Numbered from the stretch's first letter, positions 20,108 to 41,704 are shown. The stretch is 64,000 bases of DNA from an uncultured Solirubrobacterales bacterium (GCA_963750895.1 CAVVSD010000006.1:1443525-1507524), one strand, 5' to 3'. Numbers and translations: made by a program. Notes: a model not told the origin generated them from the sequence alone.

Positions 20108-21710
20108 ATGAACGGGGACGGCGCGACGCCGCCTGCCGTCGCCGCGCCCGGGACGAAGCTGCCGATCATGAGCCGGCTGCGGCTCGGCCAGTGGGTCTCG
20201 ATCATCGTGGTCCTGCTCGGGGTCGTGCTCGTGGCCGGCGTGATCGTCGGCGCGTCGGCGCTGTCGCGCCAGATCGACTCCCGCAACGAGATCATCGAGC
20301 AGCTCGACCCTGCGCGGACGGCGTCCCTGCAGCTCGGCTCGGCGATCGTGGCCCAGCAGAACGGCCTTCGCGGCTTCGCCCTCAACGGCCTGGACTCGAG
20401 CCTCGACGCCTACACGCAGGCACGCGCGGACGCCGCGGACGTCACCCGGCGACTCACGGGCCTCGCCGAAGGAGAGCCCGGGCTCATAGCCAAGGTGACC
20501 GCGATCGGAACGCGCCATGGAGAGCTGGCGGACGGAGTTCGCGGAGCCGGGGATCGAGCGCATCCGCCGCGAGGGCCCGTCGCCGACCCCAGGGGACCGC
20601 GCGACGCGGTCGGCCGCCAGCTTCGCGCGCGTGACCGGCGCACTCGGCGCGCTGAATGCCGACATCGCGGCGCGACGCGCCGACGCGAAGTCCCGGCTCG
20701 ACGCCGCGACCCGGTCGACGACCGTGTCGTTCTTCGTCATCGCCGGCGCGCTCGCACTGGCGCTCGTCGCCGTCGCGCTCGCCATGAACCGAGCGATCAC
20801 CCGCCCGCTCGGGCGCCTCGCCGCCGACGCGCGGATCGTCTCCCGTGGCGACCTGGCGCACCGGCTCGCGGCCGACGGACCGGCCGACGTCGTCGGGCTG
20901 GCCGAGGACGTCGACTCGATGCGTCAGCGCATCCTGACCGACCTCTCGGAGGTCCGCGCCAGCCGCATGCAGCTCGAGGAGCAGGCGCAGGAGCTCGAGC
21001 TCAAGGCGCGCGACCTGGAGCGCTCCAACGCGGAGCTCGAGCAGTTCGCCTACGTCGCCTCCCACGACCTCCAGGAGCCCCTGCGCAAGGTCGCCAGCTT
21101 CTGCCAGCTCCTCCAACGCCGCTACGAGGGCCAGCTCGACGAACGCGCCGACCAGTACATCGGCTTCGCGGTCGACGGCGCCAAGCGCATGCAGAGCCTC
21201 ATCTCCGACCTCCTCGCGTTCTCACGCGTCGGGCGCGCCGACGCGCCGCTCGTGGAGGTCGCGCTCGACGACATCGCACAGACCGCGCAGGACAACCTCA
21301 CGTCGCGCGTCGAGCGCACCGGCGCGCGGATCGACGTCGGCCCGCTGCCGGTCGTCGACGGCGATCCCGTGCTCCTCGTCGCCGTCTTCCAGAACCTCAT
21401 CGGCAACGCGCTGAAGTTCCACGGTGATGACCCGCCGGTCGTGCACGTCAGCGCAGAGCGCGATGACGGGATGTGGACGATCACCTGCCGCGACGAGGGG
21501 ATCGGCATCGACCCCGAATACGCGGAGCGGATCTTCGCCATCTTCCAGCGCCTGCACCCCAAGGAGTCCTACGAGGGCACCGGGATCGGACTGGCGTTGT
21601 GTCGCAAGATCGTGGAGCATCACGGCGGTCGGATCTGGCTGGACACCGACATGCCGACCGGAGCGACGTTCCGGTTCACCCTGCCCGTACGACCAGAGAG
21701 GAGCGCGTGA
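20108..21710 (+). pseudogene. CHASE3-HAMP-HisKA-HATPase sensor histidine kinase with one frame change
   Basis: TM plus CHASE3-like region (AIVAQQNGLRGFALNGLDSSLDAYTQA) is in the frame of ORF 19988..21427. From MESWRTEFAEP... (20517) onward there are a second TM, HAMP, FAYVASHDLQEPLRKV and a GTGIGLALCRKIVEHHGG HATPase. One extra C appears at about 20515. An alternative start is at 20168. Confidence 0.75.
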
Positions 21711-22732: not shown

Positions 22733-25700
22733 TCAGGCGGCGGCGGTCGGTGCGGCTGCCGCGGGCGCGTGCACGACCGCGGGGCCGAGGATCTGCTCCA
22801 GCTCGGCGCGCAGCGTCGGCGTCGGCGCGACCTTGAACGCGTTGCCGAGCCGCAGGGTCCGTGGATCGCCGGCGGACAGCAGGAGCTCCAGCACCACCTC
22901 CGACTCGCCCGGGAAGGAGCCGAGGAGGTCCTTCAGGTCGTCGATCGCGGAGGCGGGCAGGCGCGCGGCGTCCAGGCGGAGCTTGAGCGGCGGCGGGCCG
23001 AGGCGCCGCGTGCTCGCCTCGAGCTTGGCCTTCTCGATCTCCGCCTCGGACGGCTCGAAGCGCTCGACGGTCTGCGCCACGAGCGACGTCTTCGTCGCCT
23101 CCTTGTGGTCCACCCTGCCGCGCACGAGCACGACCGAGTCGACGCCCAGCGCGCCCTCGTACTCCCCGAGCGCCTTGCCGAAGACGATGACCTCGACCGA
23201 CCCCTCGAGGTCGTCGAGCGTCGCGAACATCATGTGGTCGCCGTTGCGCGTGCGGATCTTCTTGGCCTGCGTGATGATGCCGCCGGCGGTGACCCAGTCG
23301 CCGTCCTTGCGCTCGGCGAGCTCGGCGAGGCCGCAGTCCACCCGGACGCGCAGCGCCTCGCGGACCTGCTTGAGCGGGTGCGCGGAGATGAACAGGCCGA
23401 TCGACTCCTTCTCGATCGCCAGCATCTCGGGCTGGTCGAACTCCTCCGACGGGATCGGCGGGTGCTGGGGCGCGGCGAACGCCGCCATCGCGCCGCTCTC
23501 GGCGGCGGTGTCGTCGAAGAGACCGTCGAAGATCGAGCCCTGCCCGATCTGGGCGTCCTGCTGGCTCTTCTGCCCCGCGGCCTGCGCCTGCTCCAGCACG
23601 GAGAGCATGCCCTTGCGCGACGCGCCGGTGGAGCCGAACGCCCCGCACTTCACCAGGGCCTCGATGGCCTTCTTGTTCACCGCCCGTGCATCGACCCGCG
23701 CGCAGAACTCCCAGAGCGACTCGAAGTTCCCACCCTCGGCGCGGGCGGCCTTGATCGCCTCCACGGCCGCGTAGCCCACGCCCTTCACGGCGTCGAGCCC
23801 GAAGCGGATGTTGCCCTCGTCGACGACGAACTCGTGGTCGGAGAGGTTGACGTCGGGCGGCAGGATCTCGATGCCCATCGACTCCGCCTGGTTGGCGAAG
23901 AAGGGCACCTTGTCCTTCGTGTCCATGACGCTGGAGATCAGCGCCGCCATGTACTCGGCGGGGTAGTTCGCCTTCAGCCAGGCCGTGCGGTACGCGATGA
24001 GCGCGTAGCAGGCGGCGTGCGAGCGGTTGAACGAGTAGTCGGCCGACTTCTCGTTCGTCGTCCAGAGCCAGTCGATGACGGCGTCGCTCGTGCCGGACGC
24101 GCGGCAGCCCTCGCGGAACTCCGGCTCCAGCTGCGCCATCGCCGCGCGGTTCTTCTTGCCGATCGCCTTGCGCAGATCGTCGGCGCGCGCACCCGAGAAG
24201 CCCCCGATCTCCTTGGAGATCTGCATGGCCTGCTCCTGGTACAGGATCACGCCGTACGTCGGGCCGATGATCGGCTCCAGCCGCGGGTCGGGGAAGCTCA
24301 CTGCGTCCGGGTTGCGCTTGCCCCGCGCGTACGTGGGGATCTGGTCCATGGCGCCGGGGCGGTACAGGGCGTTGAGCGCGACGAGGTCGTCGAACTCCGT
24401 CGGGCGCACCTTGCGCAGCGCCTCCTGCATGCCCTCGGACTCGAACTGGAACACGCCCACCGAGTCCCCCCGCGCGAGCATCTCGTACGGACCCGGGTCG
24501 TCGAGCGGCAGGGTCGTCATGTCGGGCCGCTCGCCGGTGGAGCGGGCGATGATGTCGAGGGCGTCCTCGATGACGTCGAGGTTGCGCAGGCCCAGGAAGT
24601 CCATCTTGAGGAGGCCGAGCTCCTCGACGGGCTTCATGGAGTACTGCGTCACGGTCCGGTAGACGCGCTGCCCGTCCTCCCCCGTGCCGGCGTCGGCCAG
24701 CTGCAGCGGGACGATGTCGGTCAGCGGACGGTCGGCGATGACGACCGCCGCGGCGTGGATCGACGAGTTGCGCACGATCCCCTCGAGACCCTTCGCGACG
24801 TCGATGATCTGCTTCGCCGTCGGGTCGGAGTCGTAGGCGCCCCTGAGCGGCTCGCCGTCGCGCAGGCAGTCCTCGAAGCTCGGCGGCCGGCCCATGATCG
24901 GGTCGGGGATGAGCTTGGCCAGACGATCGCCCGCGCCGTAGTCGTGCCCGAGCACGCGGGCGGCGTCACGCGTCGCCGCGCGCGGGAACATCTTGCCGAA
25001 GGTGACGATCTGCGCGACCGACTCGCGCCCGTACTTCTGCGTCACGTAGCGCATGACGCGCTCGCGCCCGCGGACGGAGAAGTCGATGTCGATATCAGGC
25101 ATCGACACGCGCTCGGGGTTGAGGAACCGCTCGAACAGGAGCCCGTAGCGAAGGGGATCGACGTCCGTGATCTGCAGGCAGTACGCGACGAGGCTGCCGG
25201 CCGCGCTGCCTCGGCCGGGGCCGACGGCGATGCCGTTGTCCTTCGCGTACTTCACGAAGTCCCACACGATGAGGAAGTACGCGTCGAAGCCCATCCGGTT
25301 GACGACCTCGAGCTCCATCTCCATGCGCTCGATCGCCTCGGCCGGCGGCGGATCGCCGTAGCGCTGCCGCATGCCCTCCATCACCCGCTCGCGCAGATAG
25401 GCCTTCTCGTCCTCCCCCTCGGGGAGGTAGCGCGGGATGAGCTGGCGGCCGAGCTCGATCTCCGTGCTGCAGCGCTCGGCGATCTCGAGCGTCGAGGCGA
25501 GCGCCTCGGGCCACTCGGCGAACGACTGCGACATCTCCTCCGTGGACTTCAGGAAGAACTCGTTCGTCTCGAAGGTCATCTTCGGCGCCTGCAGCGTCGA
25601 CTTCGTCTGCACGCACAGCAGCGCCGTGTGGTGGTGGTAGTCCTCGCGCCCGAGGTAGTGGACGTCGGCCGTGCCGACGAGCGGGCGGCCGAGCTCGCGC

Positions 25701-26302
25701 GCGATCTGCACGATCCCCTCGTTCGCCTGGTCCTGCAGCGCGAGACCGTTCTTCTGCACCTCGAAGAACACGTTGTCGGACCCGAAGATGCCGAGCAGGT
25801 CCTGCGCGTGGGCGCGCGCATCGTCCATCCGACCGTCGGTGATCCGCTGGCAGAAGCGGCTGGCGAGGCAGCCGGTGAGGGCGATGATGCCCTTGCCGTG
25901 GCGCTCGAGCAGCCCGAGGTCGACGGTGGGCTTCCCGCGCTGGAGACCCTCGAGGAAGCCCGAGGACGACAGCCGCACGAGGTTGCGATAGCCCTCGTCG
26001 CTCTCCGCGAGGAGCGTGAGGTGATTGCGCTCCGTGCGGCCCGCGGACGGGTCGGCCTTGTGATCGTCGACGAGGTAGACCTCGCAGCCGACGATCGGCT
26101 TGATGCCGTGCTTCTTGGCGGCCTTGTAGAGCTCGACGGCGCCGTTCATGACGCCGTGATCGGTGAGCCCGAGCGCGGGCTGGCCGAAGGCTGCTGCGCG
26201 CGCGGCGAGATCGTCGATCTTGCATGCGCCGTCCAGCAGCGAGTACTCGGAGTGGACGTGGAGGTGGGCGACAGAGGGGCTGCTCACGACCGGACGGAGC
26301 AT
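22733..26302 (-). CDS. dnaE: DNA polymerase III alpha subunit (DnaE1 type)
   Basis: PHP start HLHVHSEYSLLDGA, full-length core of about 1190 aa and an OB-fold tail. The ORF track extends to a TTG at 26362. Confidence 0.9.
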   Translation of the reverse strand: MLRPVVSSPSVAHLHVHSEYSLLDGACKIDDLAARAAAFGQPALGLTDHGVMNGAVELYKAAKKHGIKPIVGCEVYLVDDHKADPSAGRTERNHLTLLAESDEGYRNLVRLSSSGFLEGLQRGKPTVDLGLLERHGKGIIALTGCLASRFCQRITDGRMDDARAHAQDLLGIFGSDNVFFEVQKNGLALQDQANEGIVQIARELGRPLVGTADVHYLGREDYHHHTALLCVQTKSTLQAPKMTFETNEFFLKSTEEMSQSFAEWPEALASTLEIAERCSTEIELGRQLIPRYLPEGEDEKAYLRERVMEGMRQRYGDPPPAEAIERMEMELEVVNRMGFDAYFLIVWDFVKYAKDNGIAVGPGRGSAAGSLVAYCLQITDVDPLRYGLLFERFLNPERVSMPDIDIDFSVRGRERVMRYVTQKYGRESVAQIVTFGKMFPRAATRDAARVLGHDYGAGDRLAKLIPDPIMGRPPSFEDCLRDGEPLRGAYDSDPTAKQIIDVAKGLEGIVRNSSIHAAAVVIADRPLTDIVPLQLADAGTGEDGQRVYRTVTQYSMKPVEELGLLKMDFLGLRNLDVIEDALDIIARSTGERPDMTTLPLDDPGPYEMLARGDSVGVFQFESEGMQEALRKVRPTEFDDLVALNALYRPGAMDQIPTYARGKRNPDAVSFPDPRLEPIIGPTYGVILYQEQAMQISKEIGGFSGARADDLRKAIGKKNRAAMAQLEPEFREGCRASGTSDAVIDWLWTTNEKSADYSFNRSHAACYALIAYRTAWLKANYPAEYMAALISSVMDTKDKVPFFANQAESMGIEILPPDVNLSDHEFVVDEGNIRFGLDAVKGVGYAAVEAIKAARAEGGNFESLWEFCARVDARAVNKKAIEALVKCGAFGSTGASRKGMLSVLEQAQAAGQKSQQDAQIGQGSIFDGLFDDTAAESGAMAAFAAPQHPPIPSEEFDQPEMLAIEKESIGLFISAHPLKQVREALRVRVDCGLAELAERKDGDWVTAGGIITQAKKIRTRNGDHMMFATLDDLEGSVEVIVFGKALGEYEGALGVDSVVLVRGRVDHKEATKTSLVAQTVERFEPSEAEIEKAKLEASTRRLGPPPLKLRLDAARLPASAIDDLKDLLGSFPGESEVVLELLLSAGDPRTLRLGNAFKVAPTPTLRAELEQILGPAVVHAPAAAAPTAAA

Positions 26303-26377
26303 AGGTGGGGACCCGGACGCCAAGGGGCGGGCGGGCGGGTTGCAGACCCGCCCCGCCCGCAATCTGCGAAGGACTTC

Positions 26378-28267
26378 CTAACCGCGGGGCGCGAGGCCCT
26401 GCACGCGGTCGAACCAGCCGAGCAGCGAGGTCGCCGCGGCCAGGTCGCCGATCGCGGTCGCCGGCTCCTCGTCGGCAGGCGGCTCGGCCTGCGCGAGCAG
26501 CGGCAGCGCGCCGCGGGAGGTGAGCGTCAGGACGGCGTCCGCGCCACCGACGGCGCCCTCGGCGACGACCGGCTCGCGTGTCGTCGTCGCCGCGACGACG
26601 GCGGACCGCCTGCCGTGCTCGTCGACGCGCAGGACGCGCAGGGGCGCACCGTTCTGCACCACGACGCGGCAGGTCTCGGACCCGGCCACGTGCACGGTCA
26701 CCGCGAACGTGTGGCCGAGGGTCCACTCGCCCGGGACCGCGCTCGCGAGGGCGCGGATGACCAGGCCGGGATCCAGGGGCACCCCCGCGGAGACGAGCTC
26801 GGCGAGCGCGAGGCGCCGGCGGCGCTTGCGTGCGAGCCGCGCCAGCGGGAGGAAGAAGCGCCGGGTGCCGGCCACGCGCAGCCCGCTGGGCCACAGCGGC
26901 GCGCCGCCGCCCGCGAGCGTCGCGAACTGCTTCGGGGTCGCCTCGAGCGAGAACTCCGCGTCGGGCGAGGAGCCGTCGCGCATGAGGACGCGGCCGCCGC
27001 CGTCGGCGGACAGCTCGACCCGCAGCGGGCCGAGCCCGTCGAGGTCGAGGTCGTAGACGAGGTCGCGGCGCACCGTGCGCGCCTGGTCGGGCAGCAGCTG
27101 CGTGACGAGGCGGGCCGCGGAGGCGCGGTCGCGCTCGTCGAGCGCCGAGATGGCCCACGAGAGCCACGGCGTCCGCGGGTGCTCGGCGCTGATGACGTAC
27201 GGGATGACCTGCTCCGGCAGGGGCGCCGGCTCGTCGACGCGGTCCCCGGCCGGCGGCTTCGGGACCACCGCTGCCACGAGGTCCTCGCGGTCGCCGCGCA
27301 GCTTCGCGAGCGCCTCGGCGAAGGGATCGACGCCGCCGGGCATCGGCTCGGCGGGCTCCGCAGGCTGCGCGACCTCCTGCTCGCGCAGCGCGCGAGCGGC
27401 CTCCTCGAGCCCCGGCAGATGGCGGACGGCCGCGATGTCCGCGCCCTCGTCGACCGACTCGGGCGCAGGCGCCTCGCCGAGGACCTCGGCGAGCCTGGCC
27501 TCGGCCTGCTCGCGGGCGAGCTCGGCCAGGTCGACGGTGGCCTTCTGCAGCTCGAGCTCCGCCGACAGGCGGTCGCGCTCCGCGGAGACCTCGGCGATCC
27601 GCGCCTCGAGCGCGTCGATGCGCGCGCCGAGCTCCTGCGCGGTGTCCTCGGCTCCGCGTGCGCGGCGCTCCATGACCGCGGCGATCTGCTCGCTGCGCTT
27701 CGCGCGGCGCTCGGCGATGACCGAGCGCTCGACGACCGTCGCGCCGGGCTCCGGCGGGGCCGGCTCCGTGGCGCGCAGGATGGCGGCGGCGATGCTGCCG
27801 CGCCCCGCGGCCGGCTCGTCCTCGCGGTCGAACCGCCCAGAGGGCGGCAGCGGCAGCTCGACGTCCGCGGGCGCAGCGTCGCCCGCCTGGTCGGCGAGCC
27901 GTCGCGCGATGACCGGCGTGGCGTCGAGCGTCAGCGGGAACTCGGCGTGGCCGAGACCGAGCGCGAGCCCCTCCTCGAGGTGGTCGACGAGATCCGCCGG
28001 CACCGCGAACGTCGCGCGGAAGGCCGTCGGGTCGTCCTGCGGCGCGGCGTCGAGCGCGACGAGCGCGTGGCGGCGCGCGCCGTCATCGATGAAGAGCACG
28101 GGCGGCGGACCGCCGGCGACCCCGCCCCAGACGCCCTCGACGACGACGAGCCCGGAGCCGTCCGGCCCTCCGGTTCGCGACGCGCGGACGTCCTCGACGA
28201 GTGGCATGTCGTCCACCTCGGGATCGAGCACGGACGGAACGCTAGTGGGAGCATCGGACGAGTTCAT
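26378..28267 (-). CDS. Hypothetical coiled-coil protein, paralogue A: N-terminal DDG-x-x-RH domain + Ala/Glu/Arg coiled coil + C-terminal ~280-aa shared module
   Basis: 629-aa intact ORF with coding-like GC3. It aligns along its length with ORF 28334..30136 and, at the C-terminus, with the tail of ORF 30384..33065. No TM segment or signal peptide. Confidence 0.7.
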   Translation of the reverse strand: MNSSDAPTSVPSVLDPEVDDMPLVEDVRASRTGGPDGSGLVVVEGVWGGVAGGPPPVLFIDDGARRHALVALDAAPQDDPTAFRATFAVPADLVDHLEEGLALGLGHAEFPLTLDATPVIARRLADQAGDAAPADVELPLPPSGRFDREDEPAAGRGSIAAAILRATEPAPPEPGATVVERSVIAERRAKRSEQIAAVMERRARGAEDTAQELGARIDALEARIAEVSAERDRLSAELELQKATVDLAELAREQAEARLAEVLGEAPAPESVDEGADIAAVRHLPGLEEAARALREQEVAQPAEPAEPMPGGVDPFAEALAKLRGDREDLVAAVVPKPPAGDRVDEPAPLPEQVIPYVISAEHPRTPWLSWAISALDERDRASAARLVTQLLPDQARTVRRDLVYDLDLDGLGPLRVELSADGGGRVLMRDGSSPDAEFSLEATPKQFATLAGGGAPLWPSGLRVAGTRRFFLPLARLARKRRRRLALAELVSAGVPLDPGLVIRALASAVPGEWTLGHTFAVTVHVAGSETCRVVVQNGAPLRVLRVDEHGRRSAVVAATTTREPVVAEGAVGGADAVLTLTSRGALPLLAQAEPPADEEPATAIGDLAAATSLLGWFDRVQGLAPRG

Positions 28268-28333
28268 CGCGACGCACCGTAACGAGGTGTGTTGTGCTCG
28301 TGGAGGACATTCGTCCAGCCACGAGGGCCCACG

Positions 28334-30136
28334 CTAATGCCGTGACGGCAGGCCCTGCGCCCGGTCCAGCAGCTCCAGCAACGTCGTCATGACGTCCTCC
28401 TCGCCCGACAGCCACGCGTCGTCGTCGTGCGGCGGGGCGACCCGCCCGAGCAGCGCCAGCAGCGCGGCGGGCGACGTGGTGAGCACCGCCCGCACGGCCC
28501 CGCCCGAGGGCGGCGCGCCGACGACCTGCAGGCGCTTGCCGGGCTCGGCCACGATGGTGATCGGCTCCTGCCCGGGCACGTCGACGGCGACGGCGAAGTC
28601 GCTCTCGCCGGTCCACGTCGGCCGCACGGCGACCGCAAGCGCCTGGAGGAGCAGCGCCGGCTCCGGCACCACGCCGGCGGCGGCCAGGTCGCCGAGATCC
28701 ACCGGGACCCGCCGCGACTTCAGCAGGCGGCGGAGCGCCCGCCGGGACCCGTGGACGCGCACGGCGCCGCCGAGCCGCCGCGGCGCCCCGCCTGCGCCGA
28801 GCGTCGCGAGCGCCGCCACCGGGCCCGAGAGGCGGAACGCCGGCTCGCCCGGCGCGTCCTCATCCTTCGGCGCGACCTCTCCCGTGCTCCCTCGCAGCGT
28901 GACGCGGTACGCGCCGACGCCGTCGAGATGGATGTCGTAGACGAGGCTCTCCCCCAGCGTGCGGGCGCCGTCGGGCAGCAGGGAGATCAGGAAGGCGCCG
29001 GCCGCGCGGATGTCCTCGGCGGCGAGCAGGTCGATCGCCCCCGCCAGCCACGCGACGCCCGAGCGACGCTCGGGGCCGAGGCTGTCGCCCTGCAGGACCT
29101 TGCGGTCCTCGGGCGCCACCCGCCGCAGCCGGGAGCGCGCCCGGCGGCCGGGGCTCATCGCGGCGAGGTTCATGGTGTTGCGCAGCGGGTCGAACGGGAT
29201 GACGTTGCCGCCCTCCTCCCCCGCGGCCGGCAGCGAGCGGGCCCGCAGCTGGGCGAGCGCGAGGTCGAACGGGTCCTCCCCCTCGTCGGCGGCCGCGGAC
29301 GCGTCCTCCGCACGCCGCTCGTCCGCCTGGTCGCGCAGAGCCCGGGCGATCTCGCCGAGCTCCTCCGTCCCGACACGACCCGCGCGGGCGACCGCCTCCC
29401 GCAGCCCGTCGCGTTCCTCGCGCACCGTCTCGAGCTCGGCCCGCACTGAGGTGAGCTCGTCGCGCGCCTCGTGCAGATCGCCGGCGGCGGCCTCGGCGTC
29501 GCCGCGCGCGGTGCGCAGCGCGGCCTGCAGCCCCTCCGTCTGGGCGGCGGACTCGCGCAGGCGGGCGAGCTGCTCGTGGAGGCCCGCGTTGCGGCGCTCC
29601 TCGGCCGCCTCGGCATCCTCGAGGTCCTCCCGGAGACGATCGCGCTCCGCCGTCACCTCGGCGAGGTGCGCCTCGAGCGCGCGCATCCGCTCGGCGAGAT
29701 CCTCGAGCCCCTGCTCGGCGCGCTTCGCGCGATGCTCGGCGAGCACGGCGCGGTCGATCACCTCGGCCGGGACCGGCGGCGCCTCGGCGGCGACGTCGCG
29801 CACCGGCGCCTGCGGCACGCTCGGGAGCGCCGCGGGGAGGCGGATCTCGGCGCCCGCGAGGGACAGCAGGAGCCCGTCCGCTCCGACGCCCGCGAGCGCG
29901 GGCGGCAGGTCGAACGCGGCGTGGAAGGTCGACGGGTCGCCGGACGCACGGGGAGCGAGTGCCGGGACGACGTGGCGCTGGTCACCGTCGTCGACGACGA
30001 GGATCGGCGCCGCGTCCGAGGGCGCATCGCGCCAGGTCCCGTGGACCGTGATGCGGACCGATCCGCCCCCGCCGAGACCGCGCACCACCGATGCGACGGC
30101 GACGGGCTCACTGTCCCTCGGGGCCTCTGGCTCCAC
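28334..30136 (-). CDS. Hypothetical coiled-coil protein, paralogue B (same architecture as 26378..28267)
   Basis: 600-aa intact ORF (GTG start). The C-terminal 283 aa are closely similar to the tail of the flippase gene, including an LRNTMNLAAMSPGRR stretch that is identical in both. Confidence 0.7.
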   Translation of the reverse strand: MEPEAPRDSEPVAVASVVRGLGGGGSVRITVHGTWRDAPSDAAPILVVDDGDQRHVVPALAPRASGDPSTFHAAFDLPPALAGVGADGLLLSLAGAEIRLPAALPSVPQAPVRDVAAEAPPVPAEVIDRAVLAEHRAKRAEQGLEDLAERMRALEAHLAEVTAERDRLREDLEDAEAAEERRNAGLHEQLARLRESAAQTEGLQAALRTARGDAEAAAGDLHEARDELTSVRAELETVREERDGLREAVARAGRVGTEELGEIARALRDQADERRAEDASAAADEGEDPFDLALAQLRARSLPAAGEEGGNVIPFDPLRNTMNLAAMSPGRRARSRLRRVAPEDRKVLQGDSLGPERRSGVAWLAGAIDLLAAEDIRAAGAFLISLLPDGARTLGESLVYDIHLDGVGAYRVTLRGSTGEVAPKDEDAPGEPAFRLSGPVAALATLGAGGAPRRLGGAVRVHGSRRALRRLLKSRRVPVDLGDLAAAGVVPEPALLLQALAVAVRPTWTGESDFAVAVDVPGQEPITIVAEPGKRLQVVGAPPSGGAVRAVLTTSPAALLALLGRVAPPHDDDAWLSGEEDVMTTLLELLDRAQGLPSRH

Positions 30137-30178: not shown

Positions 30179-30352
30179 CTAGGCCGAAGCCGAGTCGCCG
30201 CGACGGGAGGAGAACAACAGGGCGCCAACGACGAGCACGAGCAGCCCGCCGATGCCGGCGAGCGCGCGGGACGGGAGCTTGCCGCCGTACTTGCGGCTGA
30301 CGTAGAACCTGCCGCCCTTCCAGACGGCCATGCCGAGCAGTCGATAGAACAT
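30179..30352 (-). CDS. Small (57 aa) single-pass membrane protein
   Basis: MFYRLLGMAVWKGGRFYVSRKYGGKLPSRALAGIGGLLVLVVGALLFSSRRGDSASA. GAGGA lies 5 nt upstream of the ATG. It sits between the flippase and paralogue B. Confidence 0.5.
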   Translation of the reverse strand: MFYRLLGMAVWKGGRFYVSRKYGGKLPSRALAGIGGLLVLVVGALLFSSRRGDSASA

Positions 30353-30383: not shown

Positions 30384-33065
30384 CTATCCGCCCGGTGCGA
30401 CCCCGGCGGCCAGGCCCTGCGCGCGGTCGAGGAGCCGCAGGAGACGGCGGACCGCCTCCTCGTCGCCCGTCATCCACGCGTCGTCCCCTTCGGGCGCCGG
30501 TGCGGCCCCGACGAGCGCGAGGAGCGCGGGCGGCGTCGCGCCGATGACGGCGCGGACGTCGCCGCCCGAGGGCGGCGCCCCGACGACGTGCATGCCGCTG
30601 CCCGGCTCGGCGACGACCGTGATCGGGTCACGGTCGGGGCAGTCCACGACGACGGCGAAGCCGTGTCGCCCGATCCAGCGCGGCTCGACGCTCGCCGCGA
30701 CCGTCCGCAGGAGCAGCGAAGGGTCCGGTACCGGCCCGGCGGCGCCGGCGAGGTCGCTCAGCTCCACCGGCGGCCGGCGCGCCTCCACGAGCCTGACCAT
30801 CGCGGTCTGCGACCCCCACGTGCGCGCCTCGGCGAGCCGCCGCGGCGCGCTTCCCGCGCCCAGCGGCGCCAGGGTGGCGACGGAGCCGGCCACCCCGAAC
30901 GCGGCGCCGTCGCGACGCCCGTCCGCCACGGCGGCCACCGACCCCGCGCCATCGCGCAACGTCACCCGGTGGACGCCGAGACCCTGCAGGTCGATGTCGT
31001 AGACGAGCTCGCCGTCCAGTGTCCGCGCCGCATCGGGCAGCAGCCCGAGCAGCAGCGCGCCCGCGGCGTCGGCGTCCTCCTGTGCCAGCCGCCCGATCGA
31101 GCGCGAGAGCCACGGGCCACGCGCCGCCCGGGCCGGCACGAGCGCCCGCTCGACCGGCCGGCGATCGCCGGCGGGCAGGCGGCGGAGCCGCGATCGCTCC
31201 CGGCGGCCGGGGCTCATCGCCGCGAGGTTCATCGTGTTGCGCAGGGCGTCGGGCTGAGGGCCCGTTCGCAGCCACGCCAGCGCGAGATCGAGCCCGTCGG
31301 CGCCGACGAGCCCCTCGCGCATTCGCGCGCCCTCCGCGCGGGCGGCGTCCAGCTCACGCCGCGCCCGGCGCAGCGACGCCTCCAGCCCCGGATCGACGCC
31401 GCCTGCCTCCCGCTGGCGCGCCAGCTCCCGCGCGAGCTCCGCGACCCGCCGCCGCGCGACGTCGTGACGCTCGTCCGTCGCGAAGGCGGACACCGCCTCG
31501 GGCAGCGCCGCCGCGGGCGGAGCCGGCTCGCCGGGCGCCCCGGGGACGATCTCGTCGAGCCGCTCGCCGCGACGCAGCGAGCGCAGCGCGCCGGCGACCC
31601 TGGACGGCCCGACCTGCGCCACGCCGACGGCGACGGCGAGCGCCAGTCCGACGGACAGCCCGGCCGCGAGCCGCAGCGCGCCGGGCTCCACGACGAAGAA
31701 GACGGCGGTCATCCACGCGATCGCGGGCACCGAGCTGAGGATGGGCACGAGCACGCCACCGCGAAGCAGCGGCCCGATGCCGAGCCCCGTCGCACGACAC
31801 GCCAGCGGCAGCCTGGCCGGCGCGATGAGCGCGCTCGTCCCCAGGCTCCCGAGCGCAGCGCCGATCGCGCCGTACCGGGACACGAGCACGATGGACAGCG
31901 CGACGTTCGCGACGCCCTCGAACACCGCGAGCCGCGCGATCGTCCGCGCCCGGCCGAAGGCGATGAGGACCTTCTCGGCGGGCGCCGTCGTGAGCCCGAC
32001 GGTCTGCACGACCATGAGCACGCTGACGATCGACGCGGTCACCGCGGGCGCGCCGCTCCCCAGCCACGCATCGACCGCGTCGTGCGCGAAGACCGCGATC
32101 CCGAAGGCGAGCGGCAGCGTGATCTGCAGCGCCACGCGGGTGGCGAGGCTGAACCTCCGGCGCACCTCGTCGTGGAAGCCGCGCGTCCGCAGGTCGGCCA
32201 CCATCGGCAGCAGCAGGTCGATGAGCGGCAGGGTGAAGCTCTGCAGGCCCGACTGGAGGCGCACCGCCGCCGCGTACGGCGCGGCCTGGACGGCGCCGCG
32301 CACGGCCGCGATGACCACCGTGTCCATCCGCTGGCCGACGAAGGTCATGCTGTCGGCGAGGAGGACGAGCGTGCCGAAGCGCCACATGCCCTTCGCCGCC
32401 TCGACCGACCCGCGTGGCGGGAGCAGGACGACGCGCTGGGCGCGGCGCAGGAGCCACCCCATCACCAGGCCGCCCAGGACGAGCGAGCCGCCGTACGCGA
32501 TCGCGACCCCGATGACCCCGGCCCCGGTCTCGACGGCCAGCACCGCGCCCGCGGTGAACCCCACGCTCGAGACGACCCCGCCCACGCTGTAGAGGTCGTA
32601 GCGCTGCACGGACTGCAGCGCGGCGGCGTACGCCCAGGTCGGGAAGACCACGAGCATCGAGACGCCGAGCACCACCATGCCGACCGTGAAGTCGTGCCCG
32701 TAGCCCTCGGCGGCGAGACCGGGCAGCAGCACCCCGGCGAGCAGGGACACGACGGCCGCCGCGACGCCGAGCACGCCCAGGATCAGGACGGATCCGCCGA
32801 GGGACGCAGCGAAGGCCTCGCGGCGACCGGCCGCGTGCTGGTCGGCGAGCACCTTCGTGAGCCCGGCCGCGAAGCCGGTGAACACGAGGGTGAAGACCAT
32901 CGTGAACGTGAACATCACGGCCCACGTGCCGAACCCGGGCTCCCCGAGGCGCACGTAGAGGTAGGGCGTCAGGACGAGCAGCGTCAGCGCATAGAGCCCG
33001 CGTGCCCCGTAGGAGCTGAGCGCGTTGCGCGCGAACCTGGCTCCCTCGCGGCGGTCCTTCTGCAT
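30384..33065 (-). CDS. MOP-superfamily polysaccharide flippase (Wzx-like, ~480 aa, ~14 TM) fused to a ~400-aa cytoplasmic extension ending in the shared ~280-aa module
   Basis: The N-terminal part is hydrophobic throughout with polysaccharide-biosynthesis-protein-like spacing. From about residue 500 there is a linker and short coiled coil, then the module (30384-31244). Confidence 0.75.
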   Translation of the reverse strand: MQKDRREGARFARNALSSYGARGLYALTLLVLTPYLYVRLGEPGFGTWAVMFTFTMVFTLVFTGFAAGLTKVLADQHAAGRREAFAASLGGSVLILGVLGVAAAVVSLLAGVLLPGLAAEGYGHDFTVGMVVLGVSMLVVFPTWAYAAALQSVQRYDLYSVGGVVSSVGFTAGAVLAVETGAGVIGVAIAYGGSLVLGGLVMGWLLRRAQRVVLLPPRGSVEAAKGMWRFGTLVLLADSMTFVGQRMDTVVIAAVRGAVQAAPYAAAVRLQSGLQSFTLPLIDLLLPMVADLRTRGFHDEVRRRFSLATRVALQITLPLAFGIAVFAHDAVDAWLGSGAPAVTASIVSVLMVVQTVGLTTAPAEKVLIAFGRARTIARLAVFEGVANVALSIVLVSRYGAIGAALGSLGTSALIAPARLPLACRATGLGIGPLLRGGVLVPILSSVPAIAWMTAVFFVVEPGALRLAAGLSVGLALAVAVGVAQVGPSRVAGALRSLRRGERLDEIVPGAPGEPAPPAAALPEAVSAFATDERHDVARRRVAELARELARQREAGGVDPGLEASLRRARRELDAARAEGARMREGLVGADGLDLALAWLRTGPQPDALRNTMNLAAMSPGRRERSRLRRLPAGDRRPVERALVPARAARGPWLSRSIGRLAQEDADAAGALLLGLLPDAARTLDGELVYDIDLQGLGVHRVTLRDGAGSVAAVADGRRDGAAFGVAGSVATLAPLGAGSAPRRLAEARTWGSQTAMVRLVEARRPPVELSDLAGAAGPVPDPSLLLRTVAASVEPRWIGRHGFAVVVDCPDRDPITVVAEPGSGMHVVGAPPSGGDVRAVIGATPPALLALVGAAPAPEGDDAWMTGDEEAVRRLLRLLDRAQGLAAGVAPGG

Positions 33066-33141
33066 CAGTCCGGGAAACGGTATAACAGGAGGACCCGGTC
33101 CGGATAGGGCGGATCAGCAGCCAGGACGGCAAGGGAGCGCG

Positions 33142-33987
33142 ATGAGGCCAGCGACGGCAGAGACGACCCCGGTGGTGACGATCGTCGTCGTCGCGCACTC
33201 CGTCCGCGACGAACTGGAGCGCTGCTTCGCCTCGATCGGCCGGTACGCGGGCGTCCCGGTCGAGACGATCCTGGTCGACAACGCCTCCGACGACGACACG
33301 CTCGCATGGGTCGCCGAGGCACACCCGGAGGTCGCCGTCGTCGAGCTCGCCGAGAACGTCGGCGTCGCCGCACGCGACCACGGACTGCGGCGCGCGCGCG
33401 GCCGGTTCACGATGTTCCTGGACTCCGACGCCGCGCTGACCGCCGGGGCGCTCCCGGCGATGGTCGAGGCGATGGACGCCCACCCCGGCTGGGGGCTCGT
33501 CGGACCGCACCTCGTCGGGGACGAGGGCGAGCACCAGTTCTCCGCGCGGCGCTTCCCGCCGGTGCTCCTCCCCATCCTGCGCCGTCCGCCGCTCGGTCGG
33601 TTCTTCGAGCACCGGCGCACCGTCCGCCACCACCTCATGACGGAGATCGACCCGGCGCGGACCCGCGAGGTCCTCTACGTCCTGGGCGCGTGCCAGCTCT
33701 TCCGGACGTCGCTGGCGACGACCGCCGGCCCGTTCGACGACCGGGTGTTCCTCGGCTGGGACGACGCGGACTGGTGCATCCGCATCCGGGACGCCGGCGG
33801 CGCCGTCGTCTACTTCCCGGCGGCGACGGTCGTGCACTCCTACCGGCGGCTGACGAAGCAGCAGCCGGTGTCGCGCGCCGCGCTGCGCCAGCTCCGCGCC
33901 CACCTGCTCTTCCAGCGCACCTACCTGCTGCGACGCCCCGAGCTGGTGGCCCTGCAGCGGAGGCTCGACCGCCGGTGGGCCGCGTGA
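33142..33987 (+). CDS. Family 2 glycosyltransferase
   Basis: VVTIVVVAHSVRDELERCFASI...ILVDNASDDDT...FLDSDA (DXD). GGGAG lies upstream of the ATG at 33142. Confidence 0.8.
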   Translation: MRPATAETTPVVTIVVVAHSVRDELERCFASIGRYAGVPVETILVDNASDDDTLAWVAEAHPEVAVVELAENVGVAARDHGLRRARGRFTMFLDSDAALTAGALPAMVEAMDAHPGWGLVGPHLVGDEGEHQFSARRFPPVLLPILRRPPLGRFFEHRRTVRHHLMTEIDPARTREVLYVLGACQLFRTSLATTAGPFDDRVFLGWDDADWCIRIRDAGGAVVYFPAATVVHSYRRLTKQQPVSRAALRQLRAHLLFQRTYLLRRPELVALQRRLDRRWAA

Positions 33988-34800
33988 CGGACCCCACCGT
34001 CTCGGTGGTGATCGTGGCGTGGAAGGCGCGCGAGGACACCCTGCGCTGCCTCGCCTCGCTGCGCGAGCACGCCGGCGTCCCCTACGAGGCGATCGTCGTC
34101 GACGACGGCTCGGAGGACGGCACGCCCGAGGCGGTGCGCGCCGCGTTCCCCGAGGCCACGGTCCTGGCCCGCCGGCCGAACGCCGGGCTCGTCGCCGGGC
34201 GCAACGCGGCGCTGCCCCACGTCCGCGGCGCCTACGTGCTCATGCTCGACGCCGACACCGAGGTGCGGCCCGGCGCGATCCCGATGCTCCTGGGGGCGCT
34301 CGAGCGCGACGACCGCATCGGGCTCGTCGCGCCGCGCCTCGTCCACCCCGACGGCACGCTGCAGCTCTCGTGCCGGCGCTTCCCGCCGTTCCTCATCCCG
34401 CTCATGCGCCGCGGCCCGTACGCGCGCCTGCACGACGACCCGCCGCTGCACCGCTGGCACATGATGAAGGACTACGACCACCGCACCGAGCGGCCCGTCG
34501 CGTGGGTGATCGGCGCCGCGCAGATGTGGCGGGCCGACCTCCGCGCGGCGACTCGGGCCCTACGACCGCCTCGTGTCGTCCTACGGCGGCGAGGACCTCG
34601 ACTGGTGCCTGCGCGTGTGGGACGCCGGGCTCGAGGTCCGCTACGTGCCCGACGCGGAGGTCATGCACGTCTTCCAGCAGGCGACGCGCCGCTCGCCGTT
34701 CGGGCGCAAGAGCCTGCGCGCCCTGCGCGACTGGTACTACCTGCAGTGGAAGCACCGGTCGCTGCGCCGCGACCGGCGGCTGCTGCAGGCGAACGCCTGA
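33984..34800 (+). pseudogene. Family 2 glycosyltransferase with one frame change
   Basis: The GTG at 33984 overlaps the upstream stop (GTGA). VSVVIVAWKAREDTLRCLASL...IVVDDGSEDGT...MLDADT is in the frame of ORF 33306..34898. LGPYDRLVSSYGGEDLDWCLRVWDAGLEVRYVP... is in the frame of ORF 34573..34800. An extra base appears near 34551. Confidence 0.75.
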
Positions 34801-34803
34801 CGG

Positions 34804-36195
34804 CTAGGTCTTCGCGCGACCGGAGGTCGCGACCACGCCGCCCCCGCCCCCGGCGTGACGCCCGGGCTCCGCGGTCCACGGCGCCTGCACCTTGTTGAGC
34901 ACGACGCCGGGCGGCCAGGCGCCGACGAGCCACAGCTGCCGCCGCGCCGCGGCGACGCTCGAGGTCGTGCTCCGCGACGGATCGACGACGAGCAGCGTCC
35001 GCTCCGCGCGGGACGCGAGCAGGAGGCTGTCGGCGTGGCCCTCGACCGGCGGACCGTCGATGAGGACCCAGTCGTGGGTCTGCAGGAGGTGGTCGACGAG
35101 CTCGGAGAAGCGCTCCGGGCGCAGGCGCGCCGCGGCGTCCGACGGCGCGGGACCCGCTGGGATGACGGTCGCGCCGGATGGGTCGATGCCCACGGCGATG
35201 TCGTGCACCGTGCCGGTGCCGGCCATGAACTCCGCGAGGCCGAGCATCGGCTCGGTGTGCGAGCCGGCCAGGATCGGACCCGCCCCCGAGCGGCGCAGGT
35301 CCGCCTCGATGACGGCGACGGTGTCCCCGTCCCCGCGGATCGCACGGGCGAGGCCCGACGTGACCGTGCTCTTGCCCTCGCCGGGGCGCGCACTGGTCAT
35401 GACGACGGTCCGCGCCGGCTCTCCGGCGAGCTCCAGGTTGAGCTTGAGCAGCCGGAAGGCCTCGGCTCCCACGGCGTCCCGCGGCCCGCGGGTGAGCGGC
35501 ACCCGCCCGAGGATCGACATGTCCAGCAGCGTCTCGTCCGCGTCGGTGATGCGCGGGTGCTTGTCCAGACGATCGACGAGCAGTGCGACCACGCCCGCGA
35601 TGAGCGCGGACAGCAGCACGCCGAGCCCGATGTACAGCGGCACGTTCGGGCGGGCGGGATCGGTCGGCGCCGCGGCCGTCTCCACGAGGGTCGCCTTCGA
35701 GGGCGCGCTGTTCTGCGCCTGGAGCGTCGCCACGTGGGAGACGAACCCGCGCGCGTACACGTTCGCGGTGCGGGCCGCCGCCTCGGGCGTGCTCCCCTCC
35801 GCCGTGATCTGCAGCAGCCGCGTCTGCTCCACCGGCGCGAAGCTCATCCGCCCCAGCAGCTCCGTGCGCGACGGACGGCCGGGCAGCTCGGCCCGCACGC
35901 GATCCGCCACCGTGGCGCCGCTCGCGAGCGCCGCGTAGGTGCGCGCGATCTGCTGGCCGAAGTTCGTGTCGACGTTCTCCGCCTGATCGGTCTCCTGACC
36001 GCCGACGTAGATCGTCGCGGTCGACTCGTAGACCTTCGGGAGCGAGAGCGTGGCCAGGACCACCGCCGCGACGGCCACGACGAACATCGCCAGGAAGGCG
36101 ACGCGGCGGCGCCAGACGACGGCGAGGAGGTCCTCGAGATTCACGCTTCTCCCTCCGGCATCATTAGAGTCCATTTTACGGACTGTTGGGCTCAC
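34804..36195 (-). CDS. Polysaccharide co-polymerase (Wzz-type, 2 TM) fused to a BY-kinase-like P-loop ATPase
   Basis: The N-terminal chain-length-determinant region lies between two TM segments. Walker A SARPGEGKST, A' VIEADLRR, B VLIDGPPV. There are no tyrosines in the last 60 residues. Confidence 0.8.
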   Translation of the reverse strand: MSPTVRKMDSNDAGGRSVNLEDLLAVVWRRRVAFLAMFVVAVAAVVLATLSLPKVYESTATIYVGGQETDQAENVDTNFGQQIARTYAALASGATVADRVRAELPGRPSRTELLGRMSFAPVEQTRLLQITAEGSTPEAAARTANVYARGFVSHVATLQAQNSAPSKATLVETAAAPTDPARPNVPLYIGLGVLLSALIAGVVALLVDRLDKHPRITDADETLLDMSILGRVPLTRGPRDAVGAEAFRLLKLNLELAGEPARTVVMTSARPGEGKSTVTSGLARAIRGDGDTVAVIEADLRRSGAGPILAGSHTEPMLGLAEFMAGTGTVHDIAVGIDPSGATVIPAGPAPSDAAARLRPERFSELVDHLLQTHDWVLIDGPPVEGHADSLLLASRAERTLLVVDPSRSTTSSVAAARRQLWLVGAWPPGVVLNKVQAPWTAEPGRHAGGGGGVVATSGRAKT

Positions 36196-36209
36196 GTCCA
36201 GCCCCGCAC

Positions 36210-37605
36210 ATGCGACCCCTGCCGATCAGCGCCCATCTCGCCAGCCCCCGACGGCTGCTCCCCGTGGGCGCCGGCCTGCTCCTGGCGGTCCTGTGGCCGG
36301 TCACCGCGTACCGCGTCTCGCCGGTGCTGCTGCCCGCCGTGCTCGCGCTCTGCGGCCTCGCGGTCGTCGTCCTGCGCCGCCCCGCGGCCGGGGTCGCGGC
36401 GGTCCTCGCGCTGACCCCGCTGCAGAACCTGACGATCGGCGGCGTCCGGCCGATGAACCTCGTCATCCCCGCGATCGCGGCGGGCCTCGTCGGCCTCATC
36501 CTCCTGCGGCCTACGGAGCCGGTGCGCGGCCCCGGCTTCCTCCTGCAGGCCGGCCGCGCTCGCGATGGTCCTCGCCGGGCTGGCCTCGTCGCTCCTGGCG
36601 ATCGACCCCGCCCGGTCGGTCAACGACATGACCGTCCTGCTCGTCGCGGCGGCGCTGCTGTTCGTGACGATGGAGTGCGGACGCACGCGCGAGGACGTCC
36701 TGCTCATCGTCGCGGGCGCCGCGGCGGGGCTGCTCGTCGCGGCCGGGCACGGCCTGCTGCAGCAGGCGTCCGGGAGCTTCGAGGCCTTCACCGCCGACAC
36801 GAGCCTGGACACCATCGGGCGCATCCAGGGCGCCTTCGGCCACCCGAACGCGTACGGCAGCTTCCTCGCGCTCCTCATGCCCGTCGCCGGCGCGCTGGCC
36901 CTGACGCGCGCGGCGAGCGCGCCCATGCGGCTCCTCGGCGCCGCCGCGCTCGCGCTCGCCGTGCCCGCCATCGTCCTGAGCTACTCCCGCGGCGCGATCG
37001 GCGCGGTGGTCGTCGGGACGCTGCTCTGGCTCGCCTTCGCCCGCCCGCGCGCCGCGCTCGGGCTCGCCGCCCTCGTCGCGATCCTGGGGGTGTCCTTCGC
37101 GCCGTCGGTCGTCCAGGAGCGCTTCGCGGAGACCTCGTCGGACGTGCCGCTGCGCTCGGACATCTGGCACGCGGCGCTCGACATCTACTCCCAGCACCCC
37201 GTGTTCGGGGCGGGGCTCAGCAACTTCTCCGAGGCCTACGAGAGCCTGCCGGCGACGATCCCCGGCGGCGCGCAGCGGCGGCTCCTGCACGAGACGCAGC
37301 TGCTCGTCCCGCCCCACGCCCAGAACCTGTACCTGAACGTCCTGGCCGAGCAGGGGATCGTGGGCTTCGCCGCGCTCCTCGTGTTCCTCGTCACGACGCT
37401 GTGGGTGCTCGTCGCCGCCACGCGCAGCCGAGAACCCACCGCGCGGGTGCTCGCCATCGGGATCGGTGCCGGCCTGCTCGGCTTCCTGCTGCAGAGCGGG
37501 CTCGACGCGCTGCTGTTCGGCGAGCACGCGGCGCCGATCTTCGCCCTCGCGGGTGTCGGCGCATGCCTGCTGCGCCTCGCCCGCGAGGCCGACGCCGAGG
37601 CCTGA
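36210..37605 (+). pseudogene. O-antigen ligase/polymerase (Wzy/WaaL-like) family membrane protein with one frame change
   Basis: The N-terminal 3-4 TM are in the frame of ORF 36186..38339. The remainder (ORF 36565..37605) contains SYSRGAIGAVVVG...HAQNLYLNVLAEQGIVG, typical of the family. The junction is near 36545-36556. Confidence 0.7.
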
Positions 37606-37616
37606 GCCGGGCGGGG

Positions 37617-38354
37617 TCAGGCGACGGGCTTCGTCGCCTCGAGCGTCATGGCCTCGACGGTGTTCTGCCACGGGGGACCGTGGTTCTCGAGGCCGTTGAG
37701 CTCGGCATGCGGGCTGGATTCGAACTCACGGCGGGCGACGTCGACGAACCCGGCCTCCCGCAGCTTCGCCGCGAGGTCGTCCTCGTCGTAGACCCAGGCG
37801 TGGCCCCAGAGGCGCATGAAGTCGTTGAACATCTGGCAGGGACGCTCGTGCGTCTTGCCGCTGATCGCGTCGAGGAACGGGATGTACTGCTCGAGGCGCA
37901 TCTCCGGGTTGCGGTCCTCGTAGAGGGCGATGATCTTGCGCAGATCGGGGGTCGTGAGCCGCACGACGCCGCCGGGCCGCAGCACGCGGTACATCTCCGC
38001 GAGCGCACGCCGGCCGACGTCCTCGGGCACGTGCTCGATGACGTGCTCGCCGAACACGTACTGCATGCAGCCGTCGGGGAGCGGCATCCGGCGGGCCATG
38101 TCGAGGTACAGGTCGCCCCCGACGAGGTCGGAGTTCAGCCAGCCCGGGAGCGTCACGGGCCCCGAGCCGATCTGCAGCCGCGGCGCGGCCGTGTCGGCGA
38201 CGTAGCGGTCGACGATGCGCCGCCCGCGGACGTGGCCGTGGCTGAGGAAGAACGGCAGCGACCGCGCCCGGAGCCACGCGTGCGTCACCGCAGGCCGCTC
38301 GGCCGCTCGTCTGCCGACAGGGGTGCTCTTGAGGCGTGATATCGCGCTGGTCAT
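37617..38354 (-). CDS. Class I SAM-dependent methyltransferase (type 11-like)
   Basis: GEHVIEHVPEDVGRRALAEMYRVLRPGGVVRLTTPD. The start is taken at MTSAISRL; the ORF track extends to 38474. Confidence 0.7.
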   Translation of the reverse strand: MTSAISRLKSTPVGRRAAERPAVTHAWLRARSLPFFLSHGHVRGRRIVDRYVADTAAPRLQIGSGPVTLPGWLNSDLVGGDLYLDMARRMPLPDGCMQYVFGEHVIEHVPEDVGRRALAEMYRVLRPGGVVRLTTPDLRKIIALYEDRNPEMRLEQYIPFLDAISGKTHERPCQMFNDFMRLWGHAWVYDEDDLAAKLREAGFVDVARREFESSPHAELNGLENHGPPWQNTVEAMTLEATKPVA

Positions 38355-38465
38355 CAGGCGAAACTCTAGTTCCTGGCGCATAGGCGACGCCAGTCCGGTC
38401 TGCAAAAGAACGCTTTTCGGGTCGTCGAGCCTATCCCGCACGCTCCGTTTTCCGTAGTGTCTGAT

Positions 38466-41699: not shown

Positions 41700-41704
41700 G
41701 GCGC

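Follow-up and report, generated by a model that had tools for sequence, protein, structure and literature searches.

A family of coiled-coil proteins with tandem SCP2-fold tails in Solirubrobacterales

What is the function of two large coiled-coil proteins encoded side by side between a polysaccharide flippase gene and dnaE in an uncultured Solirubrobacterales bacterium? Soils contain many members of this order, but they are poorly represented in culture, and their cell biology is little understood. The two genes, referred to here as A and B, lie in a stretch of DNA of 64,000 nucleotides (GCA_963750895.1 CAVVSD010000006.1:1443525-1507524), which was analysed as a whole and is called the window, its positions being counted from its first letter. 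An initial annotation had described the products of both genes as intact, collinear paralogues that might serve as a scaffold for the export of envelope polysaccharides. The computational analysis presented here shows that A and B are real genes, that the C-terminal module common to both consists of two SCP2 folds in tandem, and that they belong to an unnamed family whose genes stand directly downstream of a conserved gene for a small membrane protein. The SCP2 fold points to a hydrophobic ligand or to the membrane rather than to pure scaffolding, and a tethering function close to the membrane is tentatively favoured for these proteins.

Two paralogous genes and their domains

Gene A (26378-28267, minus strand) encodes 629 residues from its first ATG and gene B (28334-30136, minus strand) encodes 600 residues from a GTG start, both with a GC content at third codon positions of 0.94. 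A collinear alignment covers the full length of both proteins (BLASTP E 4e-40, 31% identity); in agreement with the initial annotation, they are tandem paralogues. The true starts may be located up to 20 codons (A) and up to 13 codons (B) downstream of the listed ones, and A would comprise 609 residues if it begins at the methionine corresponding to the first residue of its orthologue. The GC content at the first, second, and third codon positions of A and B is 0.83-0.85, 0.54, and 0.94, respectively, a pattern typical of genuine genes in a sequence with 72-77% GC overall. Homologues of B reach up to 99% identity, and the orthologues of A in the three closest genomes (loci L004, L008, and L010) are 80-91% identical. 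Moreover, the ratio of nonsynonymous to synonymous substitution rates (dN/dS, Nei-Gojobori method), calculated by comparison with three orthologous loci, lies at 0.20-0.25 in the case of B and 0.21-0.25 in that of A, the value for dnaE being 0.07-0.10 in the same comparison. Thus, the codon-position pattern, the close orthologues, and the dN/dS values identify A and B as real genes under purifying selection.

From the N-terminus to the C-terminus, A is composed of a beta-sandwich, a short coiled coil, a Pro/Ala/Glu-rich linker, and the tandem SCP2 tail, and B of a beta-sandwich, a coiled coil, a basic motif, and the tail. As had been noticed before, neither protein has a transmembrane (TM) segment, a signal peptide, or a recognisable enzymatic domain; the highest Kyte-Doolittle mean over 19 residues is 1.69 in B and 1.56 in A, compared with 2.41 in the small neighbouring protein described below. 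Scans against Pfam and NCBIfam returned no family at or above the cut-off for A or B, and the sub-threshold matches (KIF21A, Leu_zip, SMC, Rad50, EzrA, and DivIC) were dismissed as compositional noise from the coiled coil. A search of PDB sequences with full-length B retrieved lamin and myosin rods alone, all at E>0.1, and scans for promoters, terminators, and Rfam elements between the genes found nothing.

The tail, which the initial annotation had correctly described as common to A, B, and the flippase open reading frame (ORF) at 30384-33065 without recognising its fold, consists of two SCP2 folds in tandem over 250 residues. It occupies residues 351-600 of B (28337-29086, minus strand) and 273 residues of A (26381-27199, minus strand), which are 38-39% identical to the B tail. 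AlphaFold2 (AF2) modelled the B tail with a mean predicted local distance difference test score (pLDDT) of 93.1 and a predicted template modelling score of 0.89, as two successive alpha/beta repeats, each made of helices, four to five strands, and a terminal helix, and the two halves are in register by hhalign (E 0.0065). In Foldseek, the model matches the C-terminal domain of SdsA1 (E 1.9e-4, the top match), the SCP2 domain of UbiJ (E 2.2e-4), and SCP2 with a probability of 1.0, together with the SCP2-like domains of Eis, MycE, and SpnK. The UbiJ-SCP2 structures (6h6o, 6h6n, and 6h6p) give TM-scores of 0.53-0.61, normalised to the target, at 12-16% identity. A profile search of the PDB with the tail retrieved SCP2 chains alone, at E 0.3. 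The SCP2 superfamily was tested in Pfam as SCP2 (PF02036), Alkyl_sulf_C (PF14864), SCP2_2 (PF13530), and MDMPI_C (PF07398); SCP2 was matched by 63 of 87 family tails (E<=0.01, best 7e-7) and Alkyl_sulf_C by 47 of the 87, and one homologue (P0274) exceeds the gathering cut-off of Pfam SCP2 (25.9 vs 21.3 bits). The AF2 model, the structural and profile matches, the Pfam matches across the family, and the internal repeat thus identify the tail as a tandem SCP2 fold. Its structure places it in the SCP2 superfamily, as do hidden Markov model matches for the family as a whole, though not for A and B themselves. The fold is the same as that of the SCP2/alkylsulfatase C-terminal domains (PF02036, PF14864; SdsA1, 2cfu). 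However, the known domains of this group are single and occur free-standing or on enzymes such as thiolase and sulfatase of the metallo-beta-lactamase fold, whereas in A/B-type proteins two of them are placed in tandem on a coiled-coil rod or on a flippase.

The N-terminal domain of B (residues 11-100; 29837-30106, minus strand) is predicted to be a seven-strand beta-sandwich (AF2 model m1195ea8f6340), with strands at residues 12-21, 27-35, 45-49, 54-59, 70-77, 89-93, and 96-99 and a pLDDT of 83-96 as means of ten-residue blocks, and its equivalent in A (residues ~22-112; 27932-28204, minus strand) was delimited by alignment to this modelled domain. The top Foldseek match was the CBM21 domain of PTG (E 0.012, TM-score 0.35-0.39), and the immunoglobulin-like region of MHC class I heavy chains matched equally well; no match to CBM21 was obtained in Pfam, and the PDB profile search gave no meaningful match and no sequence relative. 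The likeness to CBM21 and immunoglobulin domains seems to be a generic fold resemblance, with no specific structural relative. The motifs quoted in the initial annotation are all present in A and B, including VxGxW and DP[ST]xFxAxFx[VL]P in both domains and P[VI]Lx[IV]DDGxxRH at residues 57-67 of A and 45-55 of B. Since DDGxxRH is kept in the A/B subclade alone and not throughout the family, it is not a catalytic motif, and the invariant residues of the domain among 13 sampled full-length members are only V, V, G, W, and L. A remote homology search with the profile of this domain recovered 152 proteins, all of them unnamed, most well below full length, and, where attributed, all from Solirubrobacteraceae, with no link to a named family.

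The coiled coil of B spans residues 125-290 (29267-29764, minus strand) by heptad periodicity and opens with VIDRAVLAEHRAKRAEQ (29711-29761, minus strand), the most conserved sequence motif of the family, whose general form is V[IV]D[RP]AVLAERRARRAE; the opening VLAE[RH]RA[KR]R is found family-wide, and the motif is invariant in seven diverse members. The helical or coiled-coil segment of A (residues 178-262; 27482-27736, minus strand), delimited by heptad score and motif, opens with VVERSVIAERRAKRSEQ. Both motifs reported for this region are shared, with V[IL]AE[RH]RAKR[SA]EQ at residues 178-194 of A and 126-142 of B and AEV[ST]AERDRL at residues 225-234 of A and 159-168 of B. The 150-200 residues of heptad-like sequence that the initial annotation had attributed to both proteins hold for B, in which the power at period 3.5 over residues 125-255 is 106.6, against 11.1 in shuffled sequences (p<0.001), but not for A, in which the value over residues 178-262 is 32.7 against 11.4 (p=0.053, marginal). 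Residues 201-230 of A exceed the 99th percentile of the heptad scores of shuffles, and the rod of A comprises only about 60-85 residues, followed by a linker of about 95 residues (263-356; 27200-27481, minus strand) that is rich in Ala (19%), Pro (16%), and Glu (14%), has no heptad signal, and contains a conserved DPFAEALAKLR motif. The coiled coil of B gives weak matches to SMC, Rad50, and lamin, all far under the cut-offs. Rod length varies across the family, full-length members having 560-1188 residues, always with a C-terminal tail.

Between its coiled coil and its tail, B carries a strongly basic motif of 24 residues, DPLRNTMNLAAMSPGRRARSRLRR (residues 316-339; 29120-29191, minus strand), of the form D[AP]LRNTMNLAAMSPGRR[AE]RSRLRR. 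A nearly identical copy is found in the flippase (31179-31250, minus strand), and B-type homologues also have the motif, whereas A-type and single-copy members lack it; it is possibly a membrane-binding or regulatory segment. The peptide NTMNLAAM was among the patterns that recovered further B-type loci.

Genomic setting, small membrane protein and flippase fusion

An exhaustive profile search with the tail retrieved 951 cluster representatives at 50% identity (E<=1e-3), 460 of them at E<=1e-30, with the tail nearly always at the C-terminus, and distant homologues (28-38% identity, 655-1025 residues) show the same three-part architecture in the alignment. All matches with a taxonomic label are from Solirubrobacterales or Solirubrobacteraceae, and all NCBI and JGI names of family members are "hypothetical protein". 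The family is thus unnamed and so far attributed to Solirubrobacterales only, a range that is a lower bound, since the profile search of genome contigs (with an alignment of the N-terminal domain and motif) was limited to exact VID[RH][AS]VLAE. The initial annotation had considered that the homologues might prove to be widespread, already-named proteins; the family is indeed widespread in metagenomes, yet it has no name, and the literature search found no description of it. Free-standing tail proteins of about 250 residues were rejected as a separate family, as on long contigs they adjoin an upstream coiled-coil ORF in the slot between argG and dnaE, and they are most likely split gene calls. 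In three contigs of long-read metagenome-assembled genomes (L005 6046-8747, L006 6217-9317, and L007 6844-8753), the coiled-coil gene is called as two ORFs, with an overlap of 4 nt in both L005 and L006 and of 1 nt in L007, and the tail is a separate product of 248-438 residues. The cause is either a true split of the gene or a frameshift introduced during assembly.

The gene order is the same in all 16 flanked loci (L001-L016), namely an arg operon ending in argG, an ORF of 53-60 codons, the coiled-coil gene or genes, and dnaE, with a gene for a 2-hydroxyacid dehydrogenase between argG and the small ORF in the closest clade. The tandem duplication into B and A is confined to the clade of the window (L003/L004, L008, and L010), and a single longer gene is found elsewhere. 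In every locus long enough to show it, dnaE follows the tail, often within 40-120 nt, although an opposite-strand GntR gene precedes it in L005-L007 and about 8 kb of unrelated genes in L002.

The small ORF had been overlooked when the neighbourhood of the flippase and B was first described. In the window, it is a conserved gene for 57 residues (30179-30352, minus strand), located between the flippase gene and B and identified by tblastn and translation. Its product starts with an amphipathic, aromatic, and basic segment, MFYRLLGMAVWKGGRFYVSRKY, conserved as M-x-Y-[RK]-LLG-x-x-VW, and contains one Gly/Ala-rich TM helix at residues ~30-48 (Kyte-Doolittle maximum 2.41). Its counterparts of 53-60 residues are encoded directly upstream of the coiled-coil gene in 16 of 16 loci, and dN/dS values of 0.15-0.27 indicate purifying selection; no Pfam family matches it. 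Gene adjacency suggests that this protein is likely a membrane partner or anchor of the coiled-coil proteins.

Upstream of the small ORF, and ending 31 nt ahead of it, lies the gene for a Wzx/MurJ-type flippase of the MOP superfamily with 893 residues (30384-33065, minus strand). Over residues 12-409, it scores 41.8 bits for Polysacc_synt (cut-off 28.2), 33.5 for Polysacc_synt_3, and 32.8 for MurJ, and it has roughly 12-13 hydrophobic segments ahead of residue 485, in agreement with the MOP assignment. The TM domain (31611-33065) is followed by a helical linker (31137-31610), which includes the B-specific basic motif, and by a B-type tandem SCP2 tail (30387-31136), all on the minus strand. This tail is 55% identical to that of B and 32% to that of A, and residues 168-580 of B can be aligned to residues ~540-890 of the flippase (window 31451-30411) at 48% identity.

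The flippase gene forms the end of a Wzx/Wzy-type polysaccharide island of 13.7 kb (30384-44059), which is flanked by the 2-hydroxyacid dehydrogenase gene on one side and the small ORF on the other and also encodes three GT2 glycosyltransferases, several methyltransferases, Bac_transf, Wzy_C, and a Wzz/P-loop BY-kinase-like protein. The arg operon and dehydrogenase genes of the window stop at 44060, and the first position of the small ORF is 30352; only 31-55 nt separate the same two flanking genes in L004, L008, and L010, in which the B and A pair comes straight after the dehydrogenase and small genes with no polysaccharide cluster. The island is thus an insertion into the locus. The TM domain of the flippase has no match in any of the 16 flanked loci, and the fusion of flippase and tail was found in two lineages only: the window, together with a 99%-identical contig (L019), and P0027/L017. 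In the latter (L017 3069-7445), a gene for a flippase with a B-type tail is followed by an A-type gene and by dnaE, with neither the small ORF nor a full-length B in the 13.4-kb contig, a layout which suggests that the island at one time entered the B gene or took its place. Identity between the two flippase tails is just 58%, and that to B tails 55-64%; this divergence indicates that the fusion is old and has been retained. Of the 142 highest-ranking representatives with a tail that were retrieved, none has more than one hydrophobic segment. A scan of metagenomes for further fusions, made with the flippase as query, returned only the 99%-identical contig and tail-only matches, and the literature search found no description of an SCP2-Wzx fusion, none of its ten best-ranked papers linking an SCP2 domain with Wzx or a flippase. 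A Wzx flippase fused to a tandem SCP2 module therefore appears to be undescribed, and the link to the flippase is local, special to this genome and not general to the family.

Predicted function and competing explanations

Taken jointly, these features are tentatively best explained if A and B are membrane-proximal, lipid-binding, and possibly isoprenoid-binding coiled-coil tethers. In the cytoplasm, the proteins would dimerise through their coiled coils into elongated rods (A-A, B-B, or A-B), which the small protein, the tail, or both would keep attached to the cytoplasmic surface of the membrane. A hydrophobic ligand could be bound by the tandem SCP2 module, the most plausible candidate being an isoprenoid chain, for example that of polyprenyl phosphate or menaquinone, and the N-terminal beta-sandwich, at the opposite end of the rod, might bind a partner. 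In this genome, the flippase of the Wzx/Wzy island inserted beside the locus carries the B-type tail together with the last ~110 residues before it. This addition could serve one of two purposes, namely to bind the lipid carrier where the flippase opens to the cytoplasm or to attach the flippase to B or A. The cytoplasmic location is supported by the lack of signal peptides and TM segments and from the occurrence of the same module on the C-terminus of Wzx, since the termini of the experimentally mapped Wzx of P. aeruginosa are cytoplasmic (PMC2932511).

The suggestion of an isoprenoid is based on two observations, namely that UbiJ-SCP2 is among the two best structural matches and that, outside the family, the tail is fused solely to a flippase whose substrates are polyprenyl-linked sugars. 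UbiJ-SCP2 has been proposed to accommodate the polyprenyl tails of ubiquinone intermediates, and it works together with a coiled coil at the membrane (PMC9499169). UbiJ, which acts with UbiK in the ubiquinone metabolon of E. coli, resembles A and B in combining an SCP2 fold, a coiled coil, and a small partner protein, as well as in its proposed position at the membrane. Nevertheless, the SCP2 domain of UbiJ is N-terminal and single, whereas those of A and B are C-terminal, duplicated, and accompanied by a beta-sandwich, and UbiK is a soluble coiled coil, unlike the TM protein that accompanies A and B. UbiJ is also about three times shorter than A and B. No ubi genes are found near A and B, whose neighbours are arg genes, a 2-hydroxyacid dehydrogenase gene, polysaccharide genes, and dnaE. 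Membership of the UbiJ family was ruled out by the reversed domain order, the doubled SCP2 fold, the identity of 12-16%, and this lack of ubi neighbours.

A stronger version of the lipid-binding tether, in which the family and its 57-residue partner would constitute a previously unknown cytoplasmic system for handling polyprenyl lipids (carrier lipid or menaquinone), is unlikely. In such a system, one end of the rod would extract the isoprenoid chain from the bilayer by means of its tandem SCP2 module, and the function would be analogous to that of UbiJ-UbiK and would have evolved independently.

Several observations weigh against a lipid-binding tether. The match of A itself to Pfam SCP2 (residues 404-455) is weak, at 14.3 bits for a cut-off of 21.3, and that of the B tail to Alkyl_sulf_C, at 17.7 bits, is under the cut-off of 27. 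Foldseek also matched the tail to SCP2-like domains that act as oligomerisation or auxiliary modules with no lipid transport, namely those of Eis, MycE, and SpnK. The anchoring role of the small protein is deduced from the adjacency of genes alone, and the 13.4-kb contig L017 has an A-type gene with no small ORF. Moreover, the N-terminal domain has no informative relative, and the conserved site beside dnaE could indicate other biology.

The role of A and B proposed by the initial annotation, as a scaffold or positioning factor for envelope-polysaccharide export that would organise the Wzx, Wzy, and BY-kinase proteins through the shared tail, draws on the adjoining flippase with its B-type tail and part of the coiled coil, on the diverged second lineage that keeps this fusion directly upstream of an A-type gene (L017), and on the Wzz/P-loop, Wzy, GT2, and Bac_transf proteins encoded in the island. 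A local physical link of A and B to the export machinery is indeed plausible here, because the tail and a portion of the coiled coil recur in the flippase. As a role of the family, however, export is improbable, given that the 16 flanked loci have no counterpart of the flippase, that the three closest genomes have B and A straight after the dehydrogenase and small genes, that none of the 142 representatives has more than one hydrophobic segment, and that the metagenome scan uncovered no further fusion. The use of the tail in polysaccharide export is thus, at best, secondary and lineage-specific. A similarly low probability is given to a coiled coil associated with the chromosome or the replisome, for example a tether or organiser coupled to the alpha subunit of DNA polymerase III, as could be imagined from the regular position of dnaE downstream of the family gene, from the lack of a terminator-like site between the genes in the window, and from the weak matches of the coiled coil to SMC and Rad50 rods. 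Since other genes intervene before dnaE in four loci (the GntR gene in L005-L007 and the 8-kb segment in L002), the linkage looks like backbone synteny, as with the arg operon upstream; in addition, no ATPase head, helix-turn-helix, or other DNA-binding domain was found in A and B, and their globular C-terminus has the fold of lipid carriers. The matches to SMC, Rad50, and archaeal SMC-related proteins (E 3.5e-6 to 0.4) arise from an Ala/Glu/Arg-rich, antiparallel-type rod, and an assignment to these proteins was rejected because the matches are limited to the rod, score 8-26 bits against cut-offs of 300-1087, and are accompanied by neither ATPase heads nor a hinge, the termini being a beta-sandwich and SCP2 folds.

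A cytoskeletal or polarity scaffold similar to DivIVA, Scy, or FilP, in which the SCP2 folds and the sandwich would be protein-interaction modules with no lipid ligand, is also an unlikely explanation. Actinomycetota make wide use of coiled-coil scaffold proteins, which, together with the highly variable length of the long coiled coils and the SCP2-like oligomerisation modules of Eis and MycE among the Foldseek matches, speaks for it. DivIVA/Wag31, Scy, and FilP are, like A and B, cytoplasmic coiled coils with no enzymatic domains, from a related phylum, but they have neither SCP2 nor beta-sandwich ends and no conserved gene for a small membrane protein. No DivIVA, intermediate-filament, or other match reached the cut-off (Filament E 0.15, DivIC 0.38), and the rod of A is short for such a scaffold, at ~60-85 residues. 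The pairing with a membrane protein and the fusion to a flippase would also be left unexplained. The DivIVA/Wag31-style logic invoked by the initial annotation is not supported, as A and B were rejected as DivIVA/Wag31 homologues for want of a DivIVA domain (PF05103) even at E<=1 and because the N-terminus is a beta-sandwich. The lipid-binding tether remains the preferred explanation, although a tentative one.

Neighbouring genes and significance of the family

On the other side of gene A, dnaE (22733-26362, minus strand) encodes the alpha subunit of DNA polymerase III and is 97% identical to the dnaE of L004. Its true start is probably at 26302 rather than at the listed TTG at 26362, because residue 1 of the L004 orthologue aligns there, and this start would leave a gap of 75 nt after the stop codon of A. 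The frame changes that had been attributed to many neighbouring genes were not confirmed by comparison of the window with L004, in which 1 of 15 genes is split. This is a histidine-kinase gene (20165-21707, plus strand), divided between two frames near 20512 relative to its 561-residue orthologue in L004, residues 1-46 of which have no match in the window; the split is due to either a frameshift or an assembly error. Farther away, the window encodes an LPG_synthase_TM-family membrane protein (1830-2894, plus strand), an aminoglycoside 3-N-acetyltransferase-family protein (61494-62315, plus strand), and two LuxR-type regulators (158-1636 and 14232-15473, both minus strand), one with TPR repeats and one with HDOD and HD domains.

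No library or paper searched contains a description of the architecture of A and B, of the tandem SCP2 module, of the small partner, or of the flippase fusion. The family is large, evolves under purifying selection, keeps to a single genomic position, and has no entry in Pfam or NCBIfam, and its defined architecture and small membrane partner would enable annotators to name several hundred "hypothetical proteins". For experimenters, the binding of a lipid or isoprenoid at the membrane provides a concrete hypothesis. The fusion would inform how the substrate lipid reaches MOP flippases if the polyprenyl carrier is bound by the module, and, if the family does handle polyprenyl lipids, the fusions of flippase and tail would represent a natural experiment in which a lipid-holding module has been wired to a Wzx transporter.

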